From positions 175,645 through 239,644 of the forward strand of contig CAUJCN010000001.1 of assembly GCA_963169855.1 (NCBI GenBank): 64,000 nt of DNA. The letters run 5' to 3'. The notes under the pieces are model-generated. The model was not told the DNA's origin, did no database searches, and was given only the letters and a program-made list of their open reading frames with translations. The position numbers were made by a program, and so were the translations under genes. This stretch comes from Patescibacteria group bacterium. Lineage in GTDB: Bacteria > Patescibacteriota > Dojkabacteria > J137. This document shows, piece after piece, positions 1 to 38,435 of this stretch (positions are counted from its first letter, which is position 1; each line of letters starts with the position of its first letter).

Positions 1-459
1 AGACTACTTGCTTCAGCTTGGAATCCTGCTGACTTTTTTAAAATGGCGTTACCTCCTTGTCATGTGCTTTTTCAGATAAACATAATCGAAGGGCAACTTG
101 CACTACACATGTATCAAAGAAGTGCAGATATCTTTTTAGGAGTTCCATTCAACATACCATCATACGCATTACTTGCACACATGCTGGGAAATGTTCTTGA
201 TGCACAGCCATCATTACTAACTATTTCTTTTGGAGATTCTCACATTTACAAAAATCATATTGAACAAATGGAAACGCAATTGACCAGAGAAATACTTCCG
301 ATGCCACAATTATTACTTGATCCAAGAATAAACGACATAGACAGCTTTGATCATAACAGTATCGTTTTACAAGGATACAAATCACATAAGAAACTTGGTG
401 GAGTAATGGCAGTTGATAGAAAGAAACCTGTGGAGCAGTTGCAGACAATCGAACAGTAA
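1..459 (+). CDS. thyA: thymidylate synthase, 5'-partial (continues upstream of window)
   Basis: Frame open from nt 1; ...RLLASAWNPADFFKMALPPCHVLFQ... and YQRSADIFLGVPFNIPSYALLAHM match ThyA catalytic Cys (PCH) and folate-binding motifs. Confidence 0.85.
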   Translation, partial: RLLASAWNPADFFKMALPPCHVLFQINIIEGQLALHMYQRSADIFLGVPFNIPSYALLAHMLGNVLDAQPSLLTISFGDSHIYKNHIEQMETQLTREILPMPQLLLDPRINDIDSFDHNSIVLQGYKSHKKLGGVMAVDRKKPVEQLQTIEQ

Positions 460-489
460 CGTAGTTCTATTAAAATCTAAAACAAAAAG

Positions 490-1716
490 ATGAGTGAAGT
501 TCTTGAAATAATAGAAAATCCTAAATCTCCAAGCTTTCCTGACGCCGTAATAGAATTAACACAAAGCAAATATCCTAGACTTTCAAGAAGACAATTTTTA
601 AAACTTACAGCAATTCTTGCTGGAGCAGGTTTGATAAAGAGAATTATTGACATCGAAACTCTAGATTGGAAAAATTATTCATACTCTAAAACTGAATTGA
701 TGAATGCCGCAATGAAATATCAGAAAGCATTTAACTTTGGAGTATATCCAGATTTCGAAGGAAACGATCCTTGGACTAATACAAATTTACTACGCGATGC
801 GATTGGGTTTCAAAACAAGATTGGAACGTTTTTAAATTTAGAATGGACTGATGAACAATCGTATCCTGGGAAATTAGACCATGCGATAGAACTTCTTTAC
901 GAAATAAACTCAAGAAATGCACAACCATTAATTAGTTTACATACAGCGTTACGTCCAAATGGAAGCCATATTTTTAGTGATTCAAATGCTAATTGGCTCA
1001 GAACTCATATCGAGTTAATGATGAAAAAGTTGAATGCTGAGTTTCCATTTCCATTAGAAATCAGAAGTTTTTACGAAGCGGATATAGATTCAAGATTTGC
1101 ATTTTCTTATGGACCAAGCAACGATTTGCACGGAGCTGCTCATCAAGAAGGATTCAAAAGAGCTGCGAGAATGCTTTCAAATGCAAATGATATGACAAAT
1201 TATAGACGTGATATCGGAATGTGTCTCTCCGTTTTTTGTTCCGACATACAAGGTTACTGGATTCCTCAAGATGGAGGTTCAAGAATTTTTGATGCAGCAG
1301 GACTAGATGGTTACGATATTTTTCCAGGAAGGCTTTCTGATTGGGTAGATGAAGACATTCCTTTTGATGGTTGGGTAACTTTGCTTGGATATTACATGTT
1401 AGGGAAAAGAAGTCCTGAACAAGTTTTCGAAGGTGGATTAAGAACCCTTGCAGAATTAACACGAGGCGAAGTTCCTTTTCATATTTACGAAATTGGATCT
1501 AAGCAAGGTGATATTGAATGGATCGATCACGCTTTCTGGCTCCTCGCGGCTTTGGGTGGAGACGGAGCTTATCCATTTATTTATGATAAACAATATCAAA
1601 TCAAAAAATATAACAAACCGTACGAAGCCGATTGGTCACGCAATTTGGGTCGAGGCGCAGAAGTTTATGCTCAAAGCTTGCATGTGTTAAATTCTCGAGC
1701 TAATATTCAACGATGA
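490..1716 (+). CDS. hypothetical secreted protein with twin-arginine-like signal (RRQFLKLTAILAGAGL)
   Basis: 408-aa ORF; N-terminal RRxFLK + hydrophobic stretch; no firm family assignment. Confidence 0.5.
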   Translation: MSEVLEIIENPKSPSFPDAVIELTQSKYPRLSRRQFLKLTAILAGAGLIKRIIDIETLDWKNYSYSKTELMNAAMKYQKAFNFGVYPDFEGNDPWTNTNLLRDAIGFQNKIGTFLNLEWTDEQSYPGKLDHAIELLYEINSRNAQPLISLHTALRPNGSHIFSDSNANWLRTHIELMMKKLNAEFPFPLEIRSFYEADIDSRFAFSYGPSNDLHGAAHQEGFKRAARMLSNANDMTNYRRDIGMCLSVFCSDIQGYWIPQDGGSRIFDAAGLDGYDIFPGRLSDWVDEDIPFDGWVTLLGYYMLGKRSPEQVFEGGLRTLAELTRGEVPFHIYEIGSKQGDIEWIDHAFWLLAALGGDGAYPFIYDKQYQIKKYNKPYEADWSRNLGRGAEVYAQSLHVLNSRANIQR

Positions 1717-2099
1717 AGAAAATCGTAATTTGCGGATCAACAAAATTTGCGGAAGAAATGAAATCATTTTCGGAAGAGCTAGAGTCGTTCGGATTTGAAG
1801 TTATATTTCCCAAAGTAGATATTTCTGATGAAGATATTGATAAATTCCCATTTGCGGAAAAACAATTCGTTTACAACAGATTGATTACAAATTATTTCAA
1901 ACACATTTCGGAATCAGATGCAGTTTTCATTTACAACAAAAATGGTTACATCGGAACAAGTGTAACAATGGAACTTGCATACGCCTTTGCTATGAAAAAA
2001 CCAATCTATGCTTTTCATGCTGATGAAGATATTACTCGCGGTTCTTTAATTACAAAAATAACTCCGACTTCAAATGAGTTAGTAGAACTTTTGAAGTAA
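1713..2099 (+). CDS. nucleoside 2-deoxyribosyltransferase-like / flavodoxin-like fold protein
   Basis: MKKIVICGSTKF... Rossmann-like N-terminus typical of NDT-like proteins; start overlaps upstream stop (ATGA). Confidence 0.4.
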   Translation: MKKIVICGSTKFAEEMKSFSEELESFGFEVIFPKVDISDEDIDKFPFAEKQFVYNRLITNYFKHISESDAVFIYNKNGYIGTSVTMELAYAFAMKKPIYAFHADEDITRGSLITKITPTSNELVELLK

Positions 2100-2401
2100 T
2101 GAACATTTACGTTTTCAAAAGTCCTCTACAAATGTTTCAAACGGATGCTGCTTGGTACTTTGTAACTTTGCCAAAAAATATTGCAGAAGAAATTAAATTT
2201 TTATTTTCTTCTCAATCACGAGGATGGGGATCTTTTCCAGTAAAAGTTATAGTTGGAGAATCCGAATGGAGAACTTCAATCTTTCCGGATAAATCTTCGA
2301 ACTCATACTTTCTACCAATAAAAAAATCAGTTCGATTAGCTGAAGATCTAAGTATAAACGAAATTGTGGAAGTTGAAATAAACATGTTAGTTTCGTTATG
2401 A
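2099..2401 (+). CDS. DUF1905-family protein
   Basis: 100 aa; FVTLP...GWGSFPVKVIVGESEWRTSIFP pattern typical of DUF1905; translationally coupled (TAATG). Confidence 0.5.
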   Translation: MNIYVFKSPLQMFQTDAAWYFVTLPKNIAEEIKFLFSSQSRGWGSFPVKVIVGESEWRTSIFPDKSSNSYFLPIKKSVRLAEDLSINEIVEVEINMLVSL

Positions 2402-2410
2402 TGTATCAAT

Positions 2411-3148
2411 ATGAAACTCAAAAATAAAAAGATTGGATTATCAATTAGAGGAGGCGGAACAAAATCCGTTGCTTATGCAGGGGTTTTGAAAGCATTTGAA
2501 GAATTAGAAATACCAATTCACGCAATCGTATCTGCAAGTGGCGGCTCAGCAGTTGCAACCTATCACGCACTAGGGTTAAAACCAGAGCAGATTCTTGAAA
2601 ATTTAAAAAAAGTTCGACCTTATTCAATATTTTCATTAAGATCATTAATTAGAGGACGTATTGCAGATTACAGAGAATGGGAAGAGTTTGCGCAACAGGC
2701 AACACAAGGTAAACGAATAGAAGATACTCAGATAAAACTATTTATTCAAGCGACAAATGTAAATACGCACGAACTAGAGTACATCGAGACCGGTGATTTA
2801 GCCAAGGCAGTAGTAGCATCCTCTGCAATTTTATATCCATACAAATTTAAGCACAGACAATATGTTGATGGTGAATACTCACCTGCATACGGAATTGATA
2901 AGCTCGAAGAATTCGGATGCGACATAACATTTATTATTAATCTACATGAAGGAAGAAAAAGATTTTCCTTATTAGATATTGCGAGATTATCTCAAGCGAA
3001 AGCGTTTAAGTTCGACGAAAATCTCCATCCAGCTGATTTCAAGATTTCAGTAAGGATTCCAGCAACATTTCCTTTCTCTCTGAAAGGTATGGATAAGATA
3101 TTCGACCACGGTTACAAGCAAGCTCTCAGGTTTATACAAAATCTGTAA
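2411..3148 (+). CDS. patatin-like phospholipase
   Basis: GLSIRGGGTKSVAYAGVL (oxyanion GGGxK/R) and SASGGS (GxSxG) motifs. Confidence 0.7.
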   Translation: MKLKNKKIGLSIRGGGTKSVAYAGVLKAFEELEIPIHAIVSASGGSAVATYHALGLKPEQILENLKKVRPYSIFSLRSLIRGRIADYREWEEFAQQATQGKRIEDTQIKLFIQATNVNTHELEYIETGDLAKAVVASSAILYPYKFKHRQYVDGEYSPAYGIDKLEEFGCDITFIINLHEGRKRFSLLDIARLSQAKAFKFDENLHPADFKISVRIPATFPFSLKGMDKIFDHGYKQALRFIQNL

Positions 3149-3225
3149 TAGGTTAAAATGTAAATATTACTTATTCCTGAATCAAGTTCAGGATTAGATT
3201 GAATTTTACTTATTATTAATATTTT

Positions 3226-3492
3226 ATGAGTAGCACCGCAAAAAAATTCATTGCAGGAATTATAATATTAGTAGTAGGAATCTTAGTTGGGTTGACAGTT
3301 CCAACAGTTATTAAGAAGTCTCAAGATTTTGATAGATACGCAAAGGCCAGAGAAGCAGCACCAGATAAAGAAGAATTCGATAGAAATTTTGATGCGATGG
3401 TTCAATGGTTTGAAGATTATAAAACAAACAATCCTGGAGCAACAGACGAGGATGCACAAGAAGCTTTCGAGGAGCTTTGGGATCGAAATTAA
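3226..3492 (+). CDS. small membrane-anchored hypothetical protein
   Basis: 88-aa ORF with N-terminal TM helix. Confidence 0.4.
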   Translation: MSSTAKKFIAGIIILVVGILVGLTVPTVIKKSQDFDRYAKAREAAPDKEEFDRNFDAMVQWFEDYKTNNPGATDEDAQEAFEELWDRN

Positions 3493-3516
3493 GATATCCT
3501 AATCAAAATCAATAAT

Positions 3517-3936
3517 ATGGCACACTATTTCGCAGGAGTAATTTTACTTAATCAATGTGGATTTCTTTTAGCCCAACATCGAGACAACGCTCCAGAAATT
3601 TTGGGAAAGAATCAATGGTGTGTTTGTAGCGGAGAAAAAGAAAATTTCGATAAAGACATTTTTGAAACTGGTACAAGAGAGTTGTTCGAAGAAACACGGT
3701 ACAAAATTCATCCTTCAGAACTAAAACTTCTTTTAGAAGATAGTTTCGTTAACGAGCTTGGAAACGAAGTTCATATTACTGTTCTCATTGCAGATTACGA
3801 TGGTCAACAAACTATTGAATGTCGCGAAGGACAAGAGATCAGATTCATCAATCCGAGTGAAATTGAAACTTTAAGTTGGTACAACAACAACCAGAACTAT
3901 TTTAAAGAAGCTTATAACCATTATCTCAAAAGGTAA
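3517..3936 (+). CDS. NUDIX hydrolase
   Basis: Nudix-box-like SGEKENFDKDIFETGTRELFEETRY (Gx5Ex7REUxEExGU pattern). Confidence 0.55.
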   Translation: MAHYFAGVILLNQCGFLLAQHRDNAPEILGKNQWCVCSGEKENFDKDIFETGTRELFEETRYKIHPSELKLLLEDSFVNELGNEVHITVLIADYDGQQTIECREGQEIRFINPSEIETLSWYNNNQNYFKEAYNHYLKR

Positions 3937-3990
3937 ATAGTAGTTCGGAAACTATTTACAAATTATTCTTTTCCATTCTATAATCCACGC

Positions 3991-4341
3991 ATGTTCGACA
4001 TGCCAGCTCCTAATGAGCAACCAAAATTAACTCTAGATCAACTTATCGAAGCAGCTGCTGAAAGAGAGCCTATTTTCATTAGAGTAGAGTGCATTTCTAA
4101 CGAAACTGGAGAAAGACATGTTTTAGATTTTGTGTTTGAGAAATCACGCACTCCTTACATGAGAATAAAAAGTGATAAAAGAAAGTTCTTCCTAACCACT
4201 GAAAGAGAAGCAATAGCTGAAGAGAATTTAAAAGTTTTGGCTAATCAAATCAGACAAATAACAGGAGGCGTTTACAGCATCCATCCATTTTACGGATTAG
4301 TTTGGGATACTCGGAACGCAACAATTTCAGAAATCGATTAG
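3991..4341 (+). CDS. hypothetical protein
   Basis: 116-aa ORF, codirectional, typical composition. Confidence 0.4.
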   Translation: MFDMPAPNEQPKLTLDQLIEAAAEREPIFIRVECISNETGERHVLDFVFEKSRTPYMRIKSDKRKFFLTTEREAIAEENLKVLANQIRQITGGVYSIHPFYGLVWDTRNATISEID

Positions 4342-4411
4342 ACAACAGAAAGTAATTGTTTTAGATATTCCAGATAAATTCCGTTATATGGAAAAGGATC
4401 TAATTGATGAA

Positions 4412-5350
4412 CTACAGAATAAAGTCAGTAAGTTCATCTAAAATCCCAGCCCATTCGCAGTATTCAATTCCCCAAAGAATTATTTCTTCAAATCCTAAAT
4501 CTTTATAATCAATAATATTCTTTTTGATCAGATCCAAAGAAACACTTTTAACTTTTTCTGGAGACTTTTTATAATCGAATTTTTCCCAAGGCTCAGCTTG
4601 AAGCTCAGCAATTATTGGTTTAATGTTTTTTGATTGTAGGTGAATTGTGATTTCTTTTAAATCTACCAATGAATAATCAGGTCCTCTATAACGGAATAAT
4701 CCTGGTTGCTTAGGATAAAAATCAAAACCTATTTGATCAATATTTTTTAGTTTTAAAATTTTCTCCAAATTATTTCTTTTCTTTAAATCGTTTCCCCAAA
4801 TTGTTACTAATATTTTTCTTGATGAATCCAAACCTTTTACTAAATCGATTTCTTGTTGAAGAAAATCTGAATCGATGTTTAAGTTACTCGGACCCGAAGG
4901 ATCAAGTGGTTCGTTTTCAATTTGCCAAGTAGAAATATTTTCGAAATCTTTAAACTGTTCAACGCAAGCTTTAATAAAATCCAAAGTCTTTTGTTCCAAT
5001 TCAGATTTTTGTACGAAGTTTGGGATGTAAAATTCTGGCCATCTAGGTGCTTTCATTCCTACAGTCAAAATAATTTCGAAACCAAGATTTTGAGAGTATT
5101 CAATAATTTCTTTTGAAGATGAAAAATCATAGATTCCATTTTCTTTTTCAATTTCATTCCAATAAAGTCCCAATCTTATTATTTTGAGGTTCGAATTGGA
5201 TAACTTATCTAGCAGTTTCTTCCAATCTAGATTTAACCAATCACACTGACCTTTAGAAAACGAAAATCCGTAAACCATTTTGAAAACAATCTTATCTAAT
5301 GTAAAATTCATTATCTCACAATAAACCTTATGAATAAGAGTAGAACTCAA
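4412..5350 (-). CDS. TIM-barrel glycoside hydrolase (GH5-like)
   Basis: WQIENEP (NEP acid/base motif) and AELQAEPW candidate nucleophile region. Confidence 0.5.
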   Translation of the reverse strand: MSSTLIHKVYCEIMNFTLDKIVFKMVYGFSFSKGQCDWLNLDWKKLLDKLSNSNLKIIRLGLYWNEIEKENGIYDFSSSKEIIEYSQNLGFEIILTVGMKAPRWPEFYIPNFVQKSELEQKTLDFIKACVEQFKDFENISTWQIENEPLDPSGPSNLNIDSDFLQQEIDLVKGLDSSRKILVTIWGNDLKKRNNLEKILKLKNIDQIGFDFYPKQPGLFRYRGPDYSLVDLKEITIHLQSKNIKPIIAELQAEPWEKFDYKKSPEKVKSVSLDLIKKNIIDYKDLGFEEIILWGIEYCEWAGILDELTDFIL

Positions 5351-5575
5351 ATTGATAATATTTTCGGCTGTCTTTCGATTGTTTTCTTAATAATGGGATT
5401 ATTCTTAGCTTTCGCGAACACTGGAATTGCAGCGCAAATCAACAAATGGCAATCACAGATATTAGGAGGTGAATTTTACCCAGCACTAACTGCTTTTGTC
5501 TTGATTATCATACCTTTGTTAGTTTTAATGATAGTAAAGCTGATTGTAGTAAGGATAATCCAAAAAAGAATTTAG
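5330..5575 (+). CDS. small membrane protein
   Basis: 81 aa, two TM helices. Confidence 0.3.
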   Translation: MNKSRTQIDNIFGCLSIVFLIMGLFLAFANTGIAAQINKWQSQILGGEFYPALTAFVLIIIPLLVLMIVKLIVVRIIQKRI

Positions 5576-5618
5576 GTTATAATAAATCGATATTTAAATA
5601 GTTTTTTAAGATTTTAAT

Positions 5619-6623
5619 ATGAAAAAAGTTCTACTTATCTCAATTCCGCTGTTCCTGCTTTGCACATGTGTTTTAGTTATTGGAGGATTCGTGTTCGCAT
5701 TCAATTCTAATACAAATATTCCAGTAGTTTCCAATTTGGTAGAGCGATTAGAAAACGTGTTTGTAAATGAAGAGACTTTCAAAACTCAACTTGTTAAAGA
5801 GATCGAAAATATAGTAAATTCTGATTTTGAAAATGTAGCACCAGCATCAAACGAATTTAAAAGTGTAGCAGCAAATTATGTTTTGAAACTAGATGTTGAA
5901 TCTGAAGAAGGGGATTTTGGATTGGACTCATCTGGCGACATTATGGGAGATTCTAACGGAGATAAAGTTTTCGTTCGAGCTGATCTCGATCTAGATTTCT
6001 CTGGAATCAAGGTTGGGGGAGAAGTGTTCCTAATGAATTTTATAAATAACATGAAGTCTGAAACATTTATTAAATTAGAAGAAATTCCTTCTTTCTTATC
6101 AATGAACATTGAAGGATTAGAAGATGCAGAAGGTGAATGGGTTTTCTTTTCAGGAGATGTTGAACGAACAATTGAATCTACACCATTTGCAGAATTAGAT
6201 ACTGAAAAGAAAGCAGAGCTGCTTCAGTTAATTAATACAGATGAATTTAAGTCTTTAATAAGCCGAGGAAACGATAGAGTTTCTCCTACTACTAATATCC
6301 GATCCAAGTGTATTATTGTTGAAGCAAACGAGCTTAAGATGACTCAGCTTTTAAACAAATACGAAGAGATTGCTGGCAGCGATATTGAACATGATTTATT
6401 ACCTACACCTTTTAGATTTACAAGCGAAATGTGTTTTGGAAGAAAAGATGGAGCACTTTCATACTTAAATTTTGAAATATTTTCACCACAAGGAAATGGA
6501 AGCTTTACTTTAGGAGATATTCGATACTCAAACGAGCCTGTGAGTTTAGAAAAGCCTTCAGATTATATTAGTATCGAAGATCTAAATCTTTCCTTTCCAT
6601 TCTTGGAAGGAGCCCAATTCTAG
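5619..6623 (+). CDS. hypothetical secreted/membrane-anchored acidic protein
   Basis: 334 aa, N-terminal TM/signal anchor. Confidence 0.5.
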   Translation: MKKVLLISIPLFLLCTCVLVIGGFVFAFNSNTNIPVVSNLVERLENVFVNEETFKTQLVKEIENIVNSDFENVAPASNEFKSVAANYVLKLDVESEEGDFGLDSSGDIMGDSNGDKVFVRADLDLDFSGIKVGGEVFLMNFINNMKSETFIKLEEIPSFLSMNIEGLEDAEGEWVFFSGDVERTIESTPFAELDTEKKAELLQLINTDEFKSLISRGNDRVSPTTNIRSKCIIVEANELKMTQLLNKYEEIAGSDIEHDLLPTPFRFTSEMCFGRKDGALSYLNFEIFSPQGNGSFTLGDIRYSNEPVSLEKPSDYISIEDLNLSFPFLEGAQF

Positions 6624-6627
6624 CATC

Positions 6628-6658
6628 ATGACGCCCATTTTGGGCGTCATTTCTATAT
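6628..6658 (+). terminator. rho-independent terminator
   Basis: perfect hairpin ATGACGCCCA-tttt-GGGCGTCAT followed by TTCTATATATT. Confidence 0.6.
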
Positions 6659-6875
6659 ATTCGTGATATAATATATATGTATAAATCATCAATATTTTGT
6701 GCTTTATACAGATCTTTAACAAGGAAGTAACTTACTACGAATTGGACCATTGGTTGTGGGCTTTAGGCGCTTCTGTTCCGTACTTGATACGGAATCTCAT
6801 GAGCATCTAAAGCTCACACCAGTACCAATTTCGGAGTACTGGCAAATCGGAGCACAACAAGGAGAAAGTTCTACC

Positions 6876-7358
6876 ATGAAGAAGCTCATCGTCATTTCGC
6901 TGCTCATCGTCGTTTCGCTGCTCGCCGTTTTCAACGCATTCGCCCAGGAACAAACCGTCGTCATCCAGAATGTCGTCGAGTGCCCCGTCACCACCATAGG
7001 CTGGTGGGGATTAACAGGAGAACTCATCAACGACGCCCCAACGAGGGACGTAATAGTCCATTGGGACGACACCAACCAACGCTCCGCGAAGGAACTCGGC
7101 GTCGACCCAGAGCAAGGGTGGATCGTCTGGTGCACGGAGAGCGATATGCTCAGCCGCGTTGCCACAGTCGAGGGCGAGCCGAACCGAATCACTATCGATG
7201 GTGACGAATATTGCCAAGTGGCGGGCTTCGTTACTAACCTCCCGGATCGACGAGTTGTTGGCGTTACGGCGGCCGCGGCGTATGCATTCACGGAATGTCT
7301 CGGGGAGACGATCGTCGAAAGCTCATACGTAAGGACTTTCGGGATCGTCTTCGACTAG
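6876..7358 (+). CDS. small secreted 4-Cys protein encoded in a GC-rich island
   Basis: RBS GGAGAAAG 7 nt before ATG; signal peptide MKKLIVISLLIVVSLLAVFNAFA; about 50-60% GC with high GC3, versus about 33% in flanks; ORF track lists 6750..7358 from a TTG. Confidence 0.5.
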   Translation: MKKLIVISLLIVVSLLAVFNAFAQEQTVVIQNVVECPVTTIGWWGLTGELINDAPTRDVIVHWDDTNQRSAKELGVDPEQGWIVWCTESDMLSRVATVEGEPNRITIDGDEYCQVAGFVTNLPDRRVVGVTAAAAYAFTECLGETIVESSYVRTFGIVFD

Positions 7359-7369
7359 CCAGCGTTACT

Positions 7370-7405
7370 TCCTCCCGGACCCGCTTAATCGCGTGGTCCG
7401 GAGGA
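7370..7405 (+). terminator. GC-rich hairpin terminator after island ORF
   Basis: TCCTCCCGGACC...GGTCCGGAGGA imperfect 11-bp stem followed by T-rich stretch. Confidence 0.45.
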
Positions 7406-7439
7406 CTTTAATCTTAAATTTCAAATACTTCTCTTTTTT

Positions 7440-7851
7440 GATCTTTTATTCTTAAACCTTCAATCTTTTTAGATATTGATCAATCTCTTAGTAAATTATA
7501 TAATCTAGATATTCACAACGATAAAGGTTCCCAGCCTTTGGAGTGAGAATGGAACTACTATTGTCATATTGAGCCTGTCGAAATATAGACAATTGGATAA
7601 CATTCCTCAGAACTCAACTGAGATAACACAAATGAGAACTAGTAAATTGCTAGTTACAGAGTCTTTAATAGCAATATTAAGGAAAAGCAAGATGGTACCA
7701 CGATCGTGTACACCGAAGCGTTTGCGTAGGTTGTAAGCCTCGTTCTTGCTAAATACTATTACCCGTAGTGTTTAGCAAGAATGGGGCTTTTTTTGTAGCT
7801 AAAGGCGTCAAATCGCCTCTGGCTAATATATTTAAATTTTATTTTGTAATT
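7440..7851 (+). promoter_or_regulatory. proS 5' leader with candidate attenuator (T-box-like motif plus long terminator hairpin)
   Basis: about 410 nt noncoding; GAUGGUACCACG at 7691-7702 resembles T-box GGUGGUACCGCG; 19-bp hairpin 7735-7789 followed by U-tract, 57 nt before proS ATG. Confidence 0.35.
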
Positions 7852-9324
7852 ATGGACGACAAGAAAATTACTCCAAGAGCCGAGGACTATTCTCAATGGT
7901 ATCTTGATATTGTAGAGAAAGCTGAACTTGCAGAAAACTCAGCGGTTAGAGGATGCATGGTAATTAAACCTTACGGTTACGCTCTTTGGGAAAACTTTCA
8001 AAAAGTATTAGATGGAAAGTTCAAAGAACTTGGTCACGTAAATGCTTACTTTCCTTTGTTAATTCCAAAATCATTTTTAACAAAAGAAGCAAAACATGTT
8101 GAAGGATTTGCTCAAGAAACAGCAGTTGTAACTCATTACAGATTAAAAACTGATCCAGTAACAAGAGAAGTTATTGTTGATCCAGAAGCAAAATTAGAAG
8201 AAGAATTAGTTATCAGACCAACATCAGAAACCATTATTTACGATACTTACTCAAACTGGATTAAATCTTACAGAGATTTACCATTACTGATTAATCAATG
8301 GGCAAATGTTTTAAGATGGGAAATGCGAACAAGACCATTCTTAAGAACAGCAGAATTTCTATGGCAAGAAGGTCACACAGTTCATGCGACTTTAGAAGAA
8401 GCTGAAGAAGAAGCAATTCAAATGCTGAAAGTTTATCAGTGGTTTGCAGAAGAATATCTTGCGATTCCAGTTATCCCTGGTCAAAAATCAGAATCTGAAA
8501 AATTTGCAGGAGCATTACGAACTTATACAATCGAAGCAATGATGCAGGATGGCAAAGCTCTTCAAGCGGGAACTTCACATAATTTAGGTGATAACTTCGC
8601 AAAAGCTTTTGATATAAAATTCTTGGACAAAGATGAAACTGAGAAATATGCTTGGCAAACAAGTTGGGGATTAAGCACAAGAATGATCGGAGCATTAATT
8701 ATGACTCACAGCGATGACAAAGGATTAGTTGTTCCACCAAAAATTGCACCAACTCAAATTGTTATAGTTCCAATTTGGAAAGATGATTCTCAAAAAGAGT
8801 TAGTATTAGCAGAGGCTAAGAAATTGAAAGAACAATTTGCAGGATTCAGCGTAAAATTAGACGATAGAGACTACAACACTCCTGGAGAGAAATTCTACCA
8901 GTGGGAAAAGAAAGGAGTGCCTTTGAGAGTAGAAATCGGACCAAAAGATATCGAGAAAAATCAGGTCGTATTTGTAAGAAGAGACAGCGGAGAAAAATCT
9001 TTTATCCCAATGAGTGAAGTTTCATCTCAAGCTAAATCCACACTAGATAATATCCAATCTTCACTTTACGAAAAAGCAAAGGCGTTTAGAGATTCTAGAG
9101 TTTACGAAGTAAATTCATACGAAGAATTGAAAGATGTTGTAGAAAATAAAAATGGATTTGCTTTAGCATACTGGGATGATTCTGCAGAAAACGAAGCGAA
9201 GATTAAAGAAGAAACTAAAGCCACAATCAGATGTATTCCTTTTGAGCAGAATGGAGTTTCTGGAAAATCAATTATTTCTGGAAATGAAACTAATCATAGA
9301 GTAATTTTTGCAAAAGCTTATTAA
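7852..9324 (+). CDS. proS: prolyl-tRNA synthetase, archaeal/eukaryotic-type class II
   Basis: [26 protein letters not shown]...[15 protein letters not shown]-terminus, motif 2 [15 protein letters not shown]-terminal zinc-binding-type domain; ORF track start 7768 is an upstream in-frame ATG inside the terminator hairpin. Confidence 0.9.
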
Positions 9325-10190: not shown

Positions 10191-10679
10191 ATGATCTGGA
10201 CTAAACCTCACATTTCAAAAATTTACGAAGCGGCTGGTGCGATTGGAGACAATCGCATCGAAGTTTCGGATTCAGAAAATTCTGCAAAGATGTTTTCTTC
10301 TTCTAAAGGCAAGTTCTACACAGTTACCTGGAACGATGATTTATCCCAAATGATGAGTAACGATAACAGTGCTTACTGGACTGGACAAGTCAGCTATCCA
10401 ATGATTTCAATTTTAATGCTGAAAGGTAAAATTCAATTTGATCCAAAAATCTGCGATTTACTAAAAGGATTTGCATGGAAAGATATAAATCAGACCCCGT
10501 ATAAGTTACGGGGTAAAAATGATTTCGACAAAACAGTGGAATTTGTTCTTAACGAACTTGAGAATAGAGGAGAAGATGTCGAATTTGTAAAAAGTGAAAC
10601 TCAGAATATTGCTGACCAACTTGATAGTTTGCAAATCGAGCATTTAGGAAACAGATTAAAACCACCAAAGGGATACTAA
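10191..10679 (+). CDS. hypothetical protein
   Basis: 162-aa ORF. Confidence 0.4.
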   Translation: MIWTKPHISKIYEAAGAIGDNRIEVSDSENSAKMFSSSKGKFYTVTWNDDLSQMMSNDNSAYWTGQVSYPMISILMLKGKIQFDPKICDLLKGFAWKDINQTPYKLRGKNDFDKTVEFVLNELENRGEDVEFVKSETQNIADQLDSLQIEHLGNRLKPPKGY

Positions 10680-10854: not shown

Positions 10855-11241
10855 ATGGATCTTATTATTTTCGACGATGTTTGCGTACTTTGTAATGGAT
10901 TTGCAAAATTTGTGCTGAATCGTGACAAAAAAGACCGTTACCTTTTTACATCTCAAACTTCCGAAGCTTTCAAAAAGTTGAATATAGATCAAAAGTTAAT
11001 AGGACAAACAGTTATCCTGGTGAAGAATTTTGAAACTAAACCAAAAGTTTTCGTTAAGTCCAGAGCGGCGATAGAAATCTTAACTTCACTTTCTAAAATC
11101 TACTTTCCACTGAAAGTTTTAATTTTAGTTCCCTGGTTTATTCGTGATTTCTTTTACGATTTAATCAGTAGAAATCGATACCGAATTTGGGGAAAGACAT
11201 CTGTTTGCTCAATAGCTAAAAACAGCAAGATGTTAAAATAA
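10855..11241 (+). CDS. DCC-family thiol-disulfide oxidoreductase (DUF393)
   Basis: N-terminal IIFDDVCVLCNGFAKFV (DxxCxxC) signature. Confidence 0.55.
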   Translation: MDLIIFDDVCVLCNGFAKFVLNRDKKDRYLFTSQTSEAFKKLNIDQKLIGQTVILVKNFETKPKVFVKSRAAIEILTSLSKIYFPLKVLILVPWFIRDFFYDLISRNRYRIWGKTSVCSIAKNSKMLK

Positions 11242-21199: not shown

Positions 21200-21263
21200 G
21201 TTGAAGCACTCGAAATGTTCAACAAAAGAATGAATGATGTCATGGTGAGGCACTCGAACCATC
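21200..21263. repeat. two tandem hairpins of the ATGGT-TCGANNNNCCTC-ACCAT family (left flank of GIY-YIG gene)
   Basis: GTTGAA-GCACTCGAAAT-GTTCAAC and GATGTCATGGTGAGGCACTCGAACCATC. Confidence 0.7.
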
Positions 21264-21569
21264 ATCATTCTTTCTCTCTCCTAGACTATAACGTTGTGCT
21301 AACTTACTAATAAGATCGTAATCGTTTTTAATTAAAGCTTCTTTCTTAGCTCTAGACCACCTCTTAATTTGTTTTTCAAAAGCAATCGCATAATTTATAT
21401 CATTGAATTCAAAAGTGGCACAAACAATAATCGGTCTTCTTTTGTAAGTGTAACAACGATTATTCAATCCATTAGAATGCTCAGAAATTCTTCTATCTAA
21501 ATTATTAGTTACTCCTATATAAAAAGTATCGTCAATACACCTAAGAATATACACATAAAAAGACTTCAT
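21240..21569 (-). CDS. GIY-YIG nuclease family protein (COG2827/YhbQ-like)
   Basis: FYVYILRCIDDTFYIGVTNNLDRRISEH signature. Confidence 0.65.
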   Translation of the reverse strand: MKSFYVYILRCIDDTFYIGVTNNLDRRISEHSNGLNNRCYTYKRRPIIVCATFEFNDINYAIAFEKQIKRWSRAKKEALIKNDYDLISKLAQRYSLGERKNDDGSSASP

Positions 21570-33246: not shown

Positions 33247-33272
33247 CGTCACATCTGCAAATGCAGGTGTCT
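33247..33272. repeat. hairpin inverted-repeat arm, left flank of second GIY-YIG gene
   Basis: CGTCACATCTGCAAATGCAGGTGTCT, internally palindromic. Confidence 0.65.
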
Positions 33273-33338
33273 CCTAAAAGAAGACGATTTTGTATCATAG
33301 AACAATGCTACTTATGCAACGACATAGTAAACTGCGTT

Positions 33339-33629
33339 ATGAGAAGTGGATACGTTTACATAATCAGCAACAGAATTTGTACAGTACTGTACATAGGAGT
33401 CACTAACAATCTAGTGCGACGTATCCAAGAACACAGAGATAATAAAACCGTAACCTCATTTTCATATAGATACAACATTAACAGACTTTTATACTTTGAA
33501 TATTATGAACGAATCAGTGATGCTATCGTTCGGGAGAAACAATTGAAAAAATGGAAACGTTCTTGGAAGTTAAAGTTAATAATAGAACTGAATCCTGCAT
33601 TCGAAGATTTGTTTAAGAATTTGCTTTAA
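33339..33629 (+). CDS. GIY-YIG nuclease family protein (COG2827/YhbQ-like)
   Basis: YVYIISNRICTVLYIGVTNNLVRRIQEH; start taken at MRSGYVY because ORF-track ATG 33261 lies inside the flanking hairpin. Confidence 0.6.
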   Translation: MRSGYVYIISNRICTVLYIGVTNNLVRRIQEHRDNKTVTSFSYRYNINRLLYFEYYERISDAIVREKQLKKWKRSWKLKLIIELNPAFEDLFKNLL

Positions 33630-36641: not shown

Positions 36642-37775
36642 GTGAATGGTGATGTAACAAAAATTGATAGTAGGGATATTCCAGATTTTGACTTTCTCCT
36701 TGCAGGATTTCCTTGTCAACCATTCAGTGCTGCAGGTAATAGAAAGGGATTTTTAGATACTAGAGGTACACTATTTTTCGAGATTGAAAGAATATTAAAA
36801 GAAAAAAAACCTCAAGGATTTCTTTTAGAAAACGTTGAAGGACTAGTCAACCATGATAAAATCGATCCTAAAGCAAAGATGGGTAGAACCCTTGAAACAA
36901 TTCTCACTAAACTCGATTTACTTGAATACAAAACCTCTTGGAAAGTTTTAGATTCTTCAGAATTTGGAGTTCCTCAAAAAAGAAAAAGAATATATATAGT
37001 AGGTCATAAGAAAACTGCCATTGATTTAGAAAACTTTCCTAAGACGAAATCAAAATTAGATGAAATTTTAGAAAAGGGACTCGATGTTCTAAATACACCG
37101 TTCACAAACAAATTGTTAAGCAAGTTTAATGTCAAGGAACTTTACGGTAAATCTATAAAAGATAAACGCGGCGGGAATGAAAATATTCATAGTTGGGAAT
37201 TAGAACTTAAAGGGTCGGTTAGTAAGTTTCAATCCGAGCTACTTAATATTTTGCTGAAAGAAAGAAGAAAAAAAATTTGGGCTGTCAAAAAAGGAATTCA
37301 TTGGATGGATGGAATGTCTTTAACATTAGCCGAGATTCAAAGTTTCTTACAACCCAATCTCTTTCAAGAAGATAATCTGAAATCTGAATTAGATGATCTT
37401 GTTACTAAAGGATATCTGGTTTTCGAACACCCTAAAGATCTCAACTCATCTGGAATAAGAGATTACAGATATGACTTAGAACCAGGTTATAACATTGTTT
37501 CTGGGAAATTAAGTTTTGAAATCAGCAAGATTCTAGATCCAAATGGAATTTCGCCTACTTTAGTTGCTACTGATATCGAAAAAATTGCCATCCCTGATAT
37601 TAACGGGGTAAGAAGGTTAACTACTAGAGAAGGATTGCGATTATTTGGGTTTCCTGAAGATTTTCGAATAGATGTAAAAAAACGAGAAGCTTATGATCTT
37701 CTAGGAAACACTGTGGTAGTAACTGTGGTGCAGAAGGTTGCAGAAAGGATACTACAAAGTATTGCCAGTATGTGA
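36642..37775 (+). CDS. DNA (cytosine-5)-methyltransferase; homology continues in frame upstream to about 36444 without an ATG/GTG/TTG
   Basis: PCQPFS (motif IV), ENV (VI), QKRKR (VIII), GNTVVVTV (X); in-frame upstream codons encode KFIDLFAGIGG (motif I). Confidence 0.75.
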   Translation: MNGDVTKIDSRDIPDFDFLLAGFPCQPFSAAGNRKGFLDTRGTLFFEIERILKEKKPQGFLLENVEGLVNHDKIDPKAKMGRTLETILTKLDLLEYKTSWKVLDSSEFGVPQKRKRIYIVGHKKTAIDLENFPKTKSKLDEILEKGLDVLNTPFTNKLLSKFNVKELYGKSIKDKRGGNENIHSWELELKGSVSKFQSELLNILLKERRKKIWAVKKGIHWMDGMSLTLAEIQSFLQPNLFQEDNLKSELDDLVTKGYLVFEHPKDLNSSGIRDYRYDLEPGYNIVSGKLSFEISKILDPNGISPTLVATDIEKIAIPDINGVRRLTTREGLRLFGFPEDFRIDVKKREAYDLLGNTVVVTVVQKVAERILQSIASM

Positions 37776-38435
37776 CAAGTAATTTTCTTTTACTTTTACT
37801 AACCAATCACTGCTTGCTAATGAAGTCTTGGGGTATTTCATCAGTACTGAATAAAGAGCTTCAACAAAAGACTTCCGAGAGTCGAAAATCTTAAACTTGC
37901 TTTTACCTGATGGATTTCTAAATATACTTGCAGGTCTTATATTATAAATGACGTCTCTTTTTATTTGAAATCTAATTGCGTATCTTTCTCCAGGACAAGT
38001 TATTTCCCATATTTTTTTTAAAAAAATATTATTAACTTTAAAGATCCCCTCTCTCAAAGTGTATGAGAATATAAGGTAATCAGCATCTAGTCTGTATGAA
38101 TCTGAAAGCAAGGAGTCACAGTAGGATTCAAAGTTCGCAATATCAAAGTTTGCGTCGCCGTCGTAATCGAAAACCTTTATTTCGAGAAGATCTTTGGTAG
38201 TGCTCAACGGAGACATGTAAAAGTCTGGAAATTCTTGAGTATTCTCAGGAGATGCTGCTTCAATACCACTTTGATTCATCCATGCCAGTAACCAATTTTG
38301 AAAAATGTACCCAACTGCACTTTTGTCAGTTAAAGTATTAGATACACCTAAAAAATCAAATCGAGATTGTCCAGAATTCTCAAGAATCCCACTTTCTTTT
38401 AGTCTTTTTACAAGTTCTTGCGCTGTAATAACCAT
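37752..38435 (-). CDS. putative type II restriction endonuclease (convergent partner of the MTase)
   Basis: 24-bp convergent overlap with MTase; candidate PD-(D/E)xK element D...LLEIKVFD. Confidence 0.4.
   Translation of the reverse strand: MVITAQELVKRLKESGILENSGQSRFDFLGVSNTLTDKSAVGYIFQNWLLAWMNQSGIEAASPENTQEFPDFYMSPLSTTKDLLEIKVFDYDGDANFDIANFESYCDSLLSDSYRLDADYLIFSYTLREGIFKVNNIFLKKIWEITCPGERYAIRFQIKRDVIYNIRPASIFRNPSGKSKFKIFDSRKSFVEALYSVLMKYPKTSLASSDWLVKVKENYLSHTGNTL

Follow-up and report, generated by a model that had tools for sequence, protein, structure and literature searches.

A long-maintained GC-rich gene for a secreted four-cysteine protein in an AT-rich Patescibacteria genome

What holds one gene rich in guanine and cytosine (GC) inside a genome that is otherwise rich in adenine and thymine (AT)? 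The question is raised by a stretch of 64,000 nucleotides (nt) from a Patescibacteria group bacterium (GenBank assembly GCA_963169855.1, contig CAUJCN010000001.1, positions 175,645 to 239,644), which we call the window. Near its beginning, a sharply delimited GC-rich island carries an open reading frame (ORF) for a secreted protein with four cysteines. The first-pass annotation of this DNA took the compositional contrast as a sign of recent horizontal acquisition. Comparison with related genomes leads elsewhere: the atypical composition is a long-standing, maintained state, and the gene did not arrive recently from a GC-rich source.

The island itself is beyond dispute. The ORF at 6876 to 7358 on the plus strand has a GC content of 56.7%, with 0.59, 0.40 and 0.71 at the first, second and third codon positions; the 43 other ORFs of the window, which form the reference set for composition, have a mean GC of 34.9% and a mean third-position GC (GC3) of 0.27 (standard deviation 0.036, maximum 0.346). 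Measured in 480-bp segments, the ORF stands 8.4 standard deviations above the rest of the window, and this is the sole such island in the 64 kb: every segment outside 6300-7500 stays at or below 41.5% GC, and comparable values appear only at transfer RNA (tRNA) genes (0.47-0.62). Followed in 50-bp steps, GC runs at 0.16-0.34 before 6725, at 0.44-0.64 from 6725 to 7400, and at about 0.22 past 7400. Codon choice is reversed relative to the genome, with CTC used for 8 of 11 leucines (genome share 4%) and GTC for 13 of 23 valines (genome share 6%), and an index modelled on the codon adaptation index gives 0.32 for the ORF against 0.60-0.69 for other genes. The GC profile and the codon index thus confirm the GC-rich island with high GC3 that had been noticed at first sight. 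A chimeric assembly is excluded because two independent Logan assemblies (L001 and L002, from ERR10655380 and ERR10655377) span both junctions and agree there with the window at 100% identity.

Is the ORF a true gene? GC-rich DNA is prone to spurious reading frames, and the annotated abundance of ORFs on both strands is indeed there, but the minus-strand ORFs are not conserved in the orthologs. The loci compared here and below are those of the window, L003, L004, L008 and L009; L004 is incomplete, the 5' element of the helix described later lying off its contig. The 160-residue frame, with its stop codon, is the only one open in all five orthologs. Between L008 and L009, the proportion of differences is 0.28 at third codon positions against 0.11 and 0.10 at the first and second, and the ratio of nonsynonymous to synonymous divergence (dN/dS) of the gene is 0.18-0.29, compared with about 0.02-0.15 for neighbouring genes. 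Divergence of this codon-like type, together with one shared open frame, demonstrates a genuine plus-strand gene for a secreted four-cysteine protein. The competing frames fall away. An antisense ORF of 164 residues and the other alternatives contain 4-8 or more stops in L003, L008 and L009. The extended ORF of 200-202 residues called by gene finders (P0001) is an over-extension, since the indels in the leader are not multiples of three and L003 has an in-frame TAA. An upstream ORF behind a Shine-Dalgarno-like AAGGAAG has no start codon at a suitable spacing. The start codon itself, formerly placed at 6877, is the ATG at 6876; a Shine-Dalgarno sequence, AGGAG, can be read at 6860 to 6864, 11 nt before it, and GGAGG or AGGAG occurs 5-7 nt upstream of the start codon in all orthologs. 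The whole island, about 6679 to 7405, makes up a single monocistronic transcription unit read on the plus strand.

As for the protein, the 160-residue precursor begins with the signal peptide MKKLIVISLLIVVSLLAVFNAFA↓QE (6876-6944), for which cleavage is predicted after AFA. Judged by inspection and not by a predictor, the Sec features are an MKK start, 17 hydrophobic residues and AFA↓QE in the window, with TSA↓QE in L003 and AGA↓QP in L004. The mature domain of 137 residues (6945-7355) contains four invariant cysteines, and so the ribosome-binding site, the AxA signal peptide and the four cysteines of the first description all stand. Invariant in the five members are C36, C86, C113, C141, W43, W63-D64, G81-W82, W85, G117-F118 and L122-P123, along with the shared motifs CPxxT..W, WD, GWxxWC, C...GF...LP and GV...A...F..C. 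A conserved housekeeping lipoprotein, which had been named as a possible alternative, is not what was found: there is no lipobox, the first cysteine, C36, lying 13 residues past the predicted cleavage. Neither the window protein nor any of the five members has a significant Pfam, NCBIfam or PDB-sequence match, and the best hits, to an OXA beta-lactamase (E 0.0065, 45 residues) and to WelO5 (E 0.16), were taken as chance.

How old is the composition? An exhaustive HMMER search of 1.84 billion representatives of about 15 billion proteins returned the query and two distant homologs only, and two profile searches over 5.8 billion clusters closed the family at five members, so that the search proposed for the 160-residue protein ended in a tiny family with no wider relatives. 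No homolog was found by tblastn in 50,697 phage records and 72,556 plasmids. All five members lie upstream of the same conserved leader of proS, the gene for prolyl-tRNA synthetase (ProRS), and a GH5 gene lies further upstream in the window, L008 and L009. Presence or absence in relatives, another check that had been suggested, thus found the gene in an unchanged position in all five loci, those of the window, L003, L004, L008 and L009. Each allele is GC-rich, with a gene GC of 0.52-0.585 and a GC3 of 0.63-0.71 against 0.33-0.37 in the flanks; at four-fold degenerate sites, C+G amounts to about 0.66-0.71 in the island gene versus 0.11-0.29 in the genes for ProRS, GH5 and a UCP014422-family protein. 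The rise in GC extends to all three codon positions, and C exceeds G at third positions in four of the five alleles (0.46 vs 0.25 in the window).

And yet these uniformly GC-rich alleles encode proteins that are only 35-41% identical between clades. Between the window and the clade of L003, L008 and L009, the synonymous divergence (dS) of the ProRS, GH5 and UCP014422 genes is 1.5-2.5, values that are rough so near to saturation; within that clade, flanking genes show a dS of about 0.4-0.6. A two-state amelioration model, set to the equilibrium composition of the neighbours and started from a GC3 of 0.7-1.0, predicts 0.14-0.55, whereas 0.63-0.71 is observed. Diverged GC-rich alleles at one site, saturated divergence of the flanks and the shortfall of the model together make this an old and maintained composition. 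Recent acquisition fails accordingly: the gene occupies one and the same site in all the related lineages that were found, its alleles are all GC-rich in spite of their divergence, and neither a donor nor a mobility gene was seen. The ORFs that were scanned up to 15 kb from the island include no integrase or transposase, nor does a tRNA gene lie in that range, the nearest being about 50 kb away, and no target-site duplication was detected at the island. Searches by accession and by topic retrieved nothing relevant on this locus from the literature.

The locus is old, but the gene is anything but static. Its protein is the fastest-evolving of the neighbourhood, with 72-85% identity among L003, L008 and L009 against 94-98% for ProRS, GH5 and the UCP014422 protein; the coding cassette evolves several times faster than its neighbours while remaining, as its dN/dS demonstrates, under purifying selection. 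Its alleles are also mosaic. In the 5' half, L008 and L009 are about 100% identical over some 240 nt (dS 0-0.19). Over the 3' half the two have reached saturation (dS 3.4), and the adjacent GH5 gene has a dS of 0.41. The middle section of the L009 allele is nearer to L003. Judging from these sequence patterns, diverged GC-rich alleles have evidently been swapped between lineages by way of the conserved flanks. Counts of polarised substitutions add nothing, since the ratio of changes towards A or T to changes towards G or C, 15:5 in the island and 18:59 in the ProRS gene, mirrors a known parsimony artefact and is uninformative.

Other parts of the neighbourhood are in motion as well. Behind the same leader, proS is of the archaeal type (ProRS-C_1) in the window (7768-9324), L003 (1762-3291) and L008 (10971-12443), and of the bacterial type in L004 (999-1838) and L009 (2773-3849); the two types are about 29% identical to each other. 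L008 and L009 differ in their ProRS type though their GH5 genes are 95% identical, which looks as though an essential gene has been replaced at a locus that recombines. Between GH5 and the island, at 5330-6623, the window has two genes that are missing from L008 and L009, one for an 81-residue membrane protein and one for a 334-residue protein anchored at its N-terminus. Neither has a credible Pfam match (the 334-residue protein reaches 18.6 bits with Prominin, for a gathering threshold of 34.3), and the difference is an insertion or deletion beside the cassette.

If the coding region varies so freely, what stays constant? The answer is the non-coding ends, which are nearly invariant over the same saturated divergence, unlike the coding sequence (CDS) between them. 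All of the following elements are on the plus strand. An extended -10 promoter, TGaTATAAT (6664 to 6672), would start transcription near 6679; lacking a good -35 element, it was not listed by a simple scan, and the block to which it belongs, TTC(A/G)TGATATAATATATA, reads the same in L003, L008 and L009 even though neutral divergence has reached saturation. At the predicted start, the leader is predicted to fold into a 5'-terminal hairpin, GUAUAAA...UUUAUAC (6679 to 6709), which reads GGUAAUA...UAUUACC in L003, L008 and L009: four of the seven pairs are changed on both sides and still pair, in a comparison made by eye, MAFFT shifting one arm by one column. Next comes AGGAAGUAAC (6722 to 6731), the 5' half of a closing helix whose 3' half, GUUACUUCCU (7364 to 7373), lies 5 nt past the stop codon. 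This 10-mer occurs twice in the 64 kb, once per strand and precisely at the edges of the island (expected 0.07). The helix of 10-11 bp is predicted with a pair probability of 0.73-1.0 in the window, L003, L008 and L009; its 5' element is invariant in the four complete loci, the helix shows no covariation, and the L004 3' element, GUUGCUUCCU, would still pair with the 5' element as RNA, through G-U.

Further into the leader, an RNAalifold consensus of the five loci, with 28 pairs, contains a stem of about 22-27 bp, P1 (6742 to 6829), formed by UUGG..UGGUUGUGGGCUUUAGG and UCUAAAGCUCACACCAGUACCAA. Its arms are nearly invariant, and the few changes in them (G6759 in the window, U in L004) only give G-U pairs on the plus strand, where the minus strand would have C-A mismatches. 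The window and L004 possess the apical 25 nt, which L003, L008 and L009 lack. The two perfect hairpins first described in this leader meet different fates here. TTCCGTA-cttga-TACGGAA exists, at 6776-6794, and forms the variable apical part of P1. CCAGTAC...GTACTGG exists too (P2, 6819 to 6842), with a loop of 10 nt instead of the 11 nt given for it; it would be an alternative pairing, as its CCAGUAC also belongs to the 3' arm of P1, and the comparative signal for it is weak, with one compensated pair in L004 (CCAGUUC/GAACUGG) and one mismatch each in L003, L008 and L009. At the other end, 7371 to 7405, RNAalifold finds in the five loci a GC-rich hairpin of 14 pairs, four of them with compensatory changes on both sides, followed by a short U-tract; it would serve as terminator, as 3' stabiliser, or as both. 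The hairpin of the terminator originally assigned here is therefore present, but its U-tract is weak (TTTAATCTT in the window, UUU(A/U)AU as the common tail), and a terminator scan reports only a partial site of five pairs. An integron attC reading of this hairpin was discarded, as the core sites, compared by eye, do not fit RYYYAAC/GTTRRRY.

These elements coincide with the composition. The GC boundaries, at about 6725 and 7400, fall on the closing helix and the 3' hairpin and not on the ends of the ORF, and the leader is itself GC-elevated (45%). For the whole transcript, the folding z-score is -6.7 in the plus orientation and -9.2 in the minus orientation; for the leader by itself it is -4.55. 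Rfam 15 has no match for the leader, the CDS or the trailer; a search of 6500-7900 at E up to 10 gave only chance-level hits to other parts, and the orthologs gave none. A 19-mer of P1 matches one viral (L007) and three metagenomic (L010-L012) sequences, which are chance hits inside unrelated sequence where both the other arm of the stem and a GC island are lacking, and a 27-mer of the proS leader has no match in the JGI metagenomes.

What, then, keeps the GC high? The reading that we prefer, to which we would assign a probability of about 0.45, is that of a cassette for a secreted protein carried on a compact, stable messenger RNA (mRNA), whose GC is kept by selection at the RNA level and is not a recent import. 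The protein would be a hypervariable, extracellular, disulfide-stabilised factor under diversifying pressure, and its partner might be other cells, a host or partner organism, or a polysaccharide surface. The mRNA would be compact, closed at its ends, nuclease-resistant and probably long-lived. Selection on the whole RNA would hold the high GC against AT-biased mutation, and GC-biased repair during the exchange of alleles may add to it. Selection at the RNA level is favoured because the GC bounds match the helices, because the untranslated regions are GC-elevated, and because C exceeds G at third positions. A stronger form of this proposal sees a protein-coding mRNA under selection of a type normally confined to stable RNAs, an end-closed particle perhaps stored, long-lived or exported, while the protein diversifies by the shuffling of alleles; this we regard as conceivable, though doubtful.

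A number of observations pull the other way. The window CDS shows no more structure than its own dinucleotide or synonymous-codon shuffles do (z 0.05 and 0.18). Those of L003, L008 and L009 range from -0.2 to -2.6, with L003 and L008 unremarkable, so that any selection on the RNA would act on bulk GC and stability and not on a specific fold. Only five sequences stand behind the helices, and most pairs are invariant. The rise of GC at three codon positions and the recombination fit GC-biased conversion equally well. The signal peptides of L008 and L009 are hydrophobic at the N-terminus but have no clear AxA site. Lastly, the nearest ProRS match in GTDB, L005, a metagenome-assembled genome labelled Limisphaerales, is without the island, although this sole island-free relative is too distant (ProRS 60% identical) to count as an empty site; a match to Erysipelotrichaceae in the same scan of GTDB genomes is unrelated.

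The folding of single coding sequences is uneven. L004 stands out with a CDS z-score of -6.5 to -8.9 against both dinucleotide and synonymous-codon shuffles, and its positions 125-601 are dense with perfect local hairpins, such as GUACUGGGAC and GUCCCAGUAC around 8 nt, or GUGUUCAGGCU and AGCCUGAGCAC around UAG; the window allele has no such hairpins. The excess structure of the L004 allele counts in favour of the reading that we prefer. A control gene of the UCP014422 family, downstream of proS in the window (10191-10679), also reached -4.2, none of 60 synonymous-codon shuffles being as stable.

Could recombination alone have produced the island? In this account, which we consider rather unlikely as the main cause, the locus would be a hot spot of GC-biased gene conversion, the near-identical flanks, promoter and leader at one end and 3' hairpin and proS leader at the other, acting as homology arms, and the helices being ordinary elements of regulation or stabilisation that have nothing to do with GC. 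With frequent exchange of alleles, heteroduplex mismatches would arise only inside the cassette, and GC-biased repair would lift all codon positions, which agrees with the rise at positions 1, 2 and 3. The mosaicism within the gene and the very uneven dS along it speak for this account, as do the two proS types behind one leader, which show that the locus recombines, the lack of specific excess structure in the window CDS, and the presence of a MutL gene in the window. By our own calculation, holding a GC3 of about 0.68 against a mutation bias of about 4:1 towards AT needs a population-scaled bias of about 2 per site, and a bias of that size would be enough. On the other hand, the effects reported for GC-biased conversion in bacteria are small, and we know of none near +40 GC3 points; conversion should be strand-symmetric, whereas C exceeds G at third positions in all alleles but one; proS and GH5 also recombine and yet show no rise in GC; and the leader, conserved and thus offering no mismatches to repair, is GC-elevated too. 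Another question is whether the 10-bp inverted repeats at 6722-6731 and 7364-7373 could be sites of DNA recombination, either the borders of an invertible, phase-variable cassette in which the ORF turns round against a fixed promoter, or the ends of a relic element. They are perfect, unique in the 64 kb and bound the GC-rich segment, with the promoter outside. However, one orientation is found in all seven assemblies (the window, L001, L002, L003, L008, L009 and, in part, L004), no recombinase occurs among the ORFs scanned within 15 kb or in the 18 kb of L008, each locus has a single copy with no target-site duplication, the helix is predicted at high probability as RNA, and the composition would be left unexplained. 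Of all the explanations considered, we find this one the hardest to credit.

Two further explanations are nearly as improbable. One of them makes the island mainly a large structured RNA, non-coding or of dual function, with the ORF secondary or incidental. GC-rich structured RNAs such as OLE, GOLLD, HEARO and ROOL do form GC peaks in AT-rich genomes, and the island resembles them in its peak, its conserved terminal and leader helices and the strongly negative z-scores of the whole unit; the L004 CDS is full of perfect hairpins, and only tRNA genes reach a like GC in the window. But 70% of the unit is a true ORF, with frame +0 alone open in all five loci, divergence dominated by third positions, dN/dS below 0.3, and a conserved Shine-Dalgarno sequence, signal peptide, and set of cysteines and tryptophans, whereas the window CDS has a z-score of about 0 and nothing in Rfam matches. 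A dual role is still conceivable. The other explanation, to which we give a shade less credence, is the acquisition from a GC-rich donor with which this inquiry started, either once or by repeated imports to the same site. Transferred GC-atypical islets share with the island the sharp contrast in composition and codon use and the orphan secreted protein with no wider family, and short inverted repeats at the edges would suit such an origin. The island departs from them in being orthologous at a fixed site in all related lineages found, with diverged alleles that are all GC-rich beside flanks of saturated dS, with a conserved leader and trailer continuous with the AT-rich flanks, and with no sign of a donor, of amelioration or of mobility, the protein, phage and plasmid collections searched and the 15 kb around the island having nothing to offer.

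Are there known systems that look like this one? The type I toxin mRNAs of the hok type fold back by pairing of their 5' and 3' ends, encode small hydrophobic membrane peptides of fewer than 60 residues and are accompanied by a cis-antisense RNA. The island likewise has a conserved helix between the 5' untranslated region and the 3' end that encloses the coding region, in a compact mRNA with a 3' hairpin, but its product is a 160-residue protein secreted through Sec with a cleavable signal peptide. The ompA leader is the example of a 5'-terminal stem-loop that stabilises an mRNA, and the island resembles it in having a hairpin at the predicted +1 kept by compensatory change, to which it adds the closing helix, the extended stem in the leader and a body rich in GC. 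Hypervariable loci for secreted or surface proteins and for bacteriocins offer a different likeness: a fast, mosaic cassette between conserved flanks, with a secreted cysteine-containing product. The island lacks genes for immunity, transport or modification, as well as a double-glycine leader, and its flanks are RNA elements and not genes; to our knowledge, a persistent GC offset is not a feature of such loci.

As for the function of the protein, the first-pass annotation had suggested an effector, a toxin or a bacteriocin-like product, and the fast evolution and allele mosaicism are compatible with that role, which is no better than a guess. The neighbours of the gene are those for GH5, for the 334-residue membrane protein and for ProRS; as far as Pfam and NCBIfam go (PADLOC and PHROGs were not scanned), the locus has no adjacent immunity or export gene, toxin domain or double-glycine leader that would mark a bacteriocin or polymorphic toxin.

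Why does this small locus matter? Compositional outliers are routinely read as recent transfer, and here is a clean counter-example: a gene of 480 bp that stands about 20 GC points above its genome, and about 40 at third positions, in five diverged alleles at one site. A local force must beat the AT mutation bias, be it selection on the physical properties of the mRNA or a strong and sharply bounded GC-biased conversion, and either would be informative on the evolution of base composition in bacteria. If the RNA reading is true, a gene has stayed at about 57% GC over a time that exceeds what synonymous sites need to reach saturation; if conversion is true, no hot spot of conversion so strong and so sharply bounded would have been described before in a bacterium. 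New in any case are a narrow family of secreted four-cysteine proteins, an RNA architecture of conserved leader and closing helix that was previously undescribed, and a cassette locus that recombines, in a lineage of which little is known. A conserved rather than transient composition makes the locus more interesting than its first framing did.

The surroundings of the island hold some surprises of their own. The proS leader, of about 280 nt, lies at 7476-7790 in the window, 1100-1400 in L003, 700-975 in L004, 10590-10880 in L008 and 2060-2340 in L009. A sigma-70 promoter of its own (7476-7504) and a strong terminator (7739-7785) belong to it in the window. The leader resembles a proline T-box, in that a conserved loop presents CCU at about 7604-7606 and the sequence GAUGGUACCACGA is there too; the Rfam T-box model scores below threshold in L004 only (28.5 bits, gathering threshold 93) and gives no score for the window at E up to 10. 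In the stretch 7768-7860, the start codon called for ProRS, the GTG at 7768, falls inside the terminator hairpin of the leader, and the true start is probably a downstream ATG, whose product aligns with the N-terminus of the L005 ProRS.

A gene for a DCC1-like thiol-disulfide oxidoreductase is conserved 3-4 kb downstream of the island gene in the window (10855-11241), L003 (4375-4761) and L008 (13527-13913). It may reflect plain synteny and not a functional link. In L008, the segment upstream of GH5 (1-8836) is a polymorphic-toxin locus, with a protein of more than 2,275 residues that contains PA14, RHS and Tox-REase-7 domains; behind it come TPR proteins and an immunity protein, Imm26. The corresponding place in the window has no such locus.

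The wider gene content of the window, with a short AlaRS, an ATP-dependent ligase, NrdR and the T-box-like leader, suggests a bacterium with a reduced genome and, taken by itself, possibly one of the Patescibacteria. It also includes a type II restriction-modification pair, formed by a C-5 cytosine methylase (36642-37775) and an NgoBV-family endonuclease on the minus strand (37752-38435). Two small free-standing GIY-YIG ORFs, at 21240-21569 (109 residues) and 33261-33629 (122 residues), may be homing-endonuclease-like.

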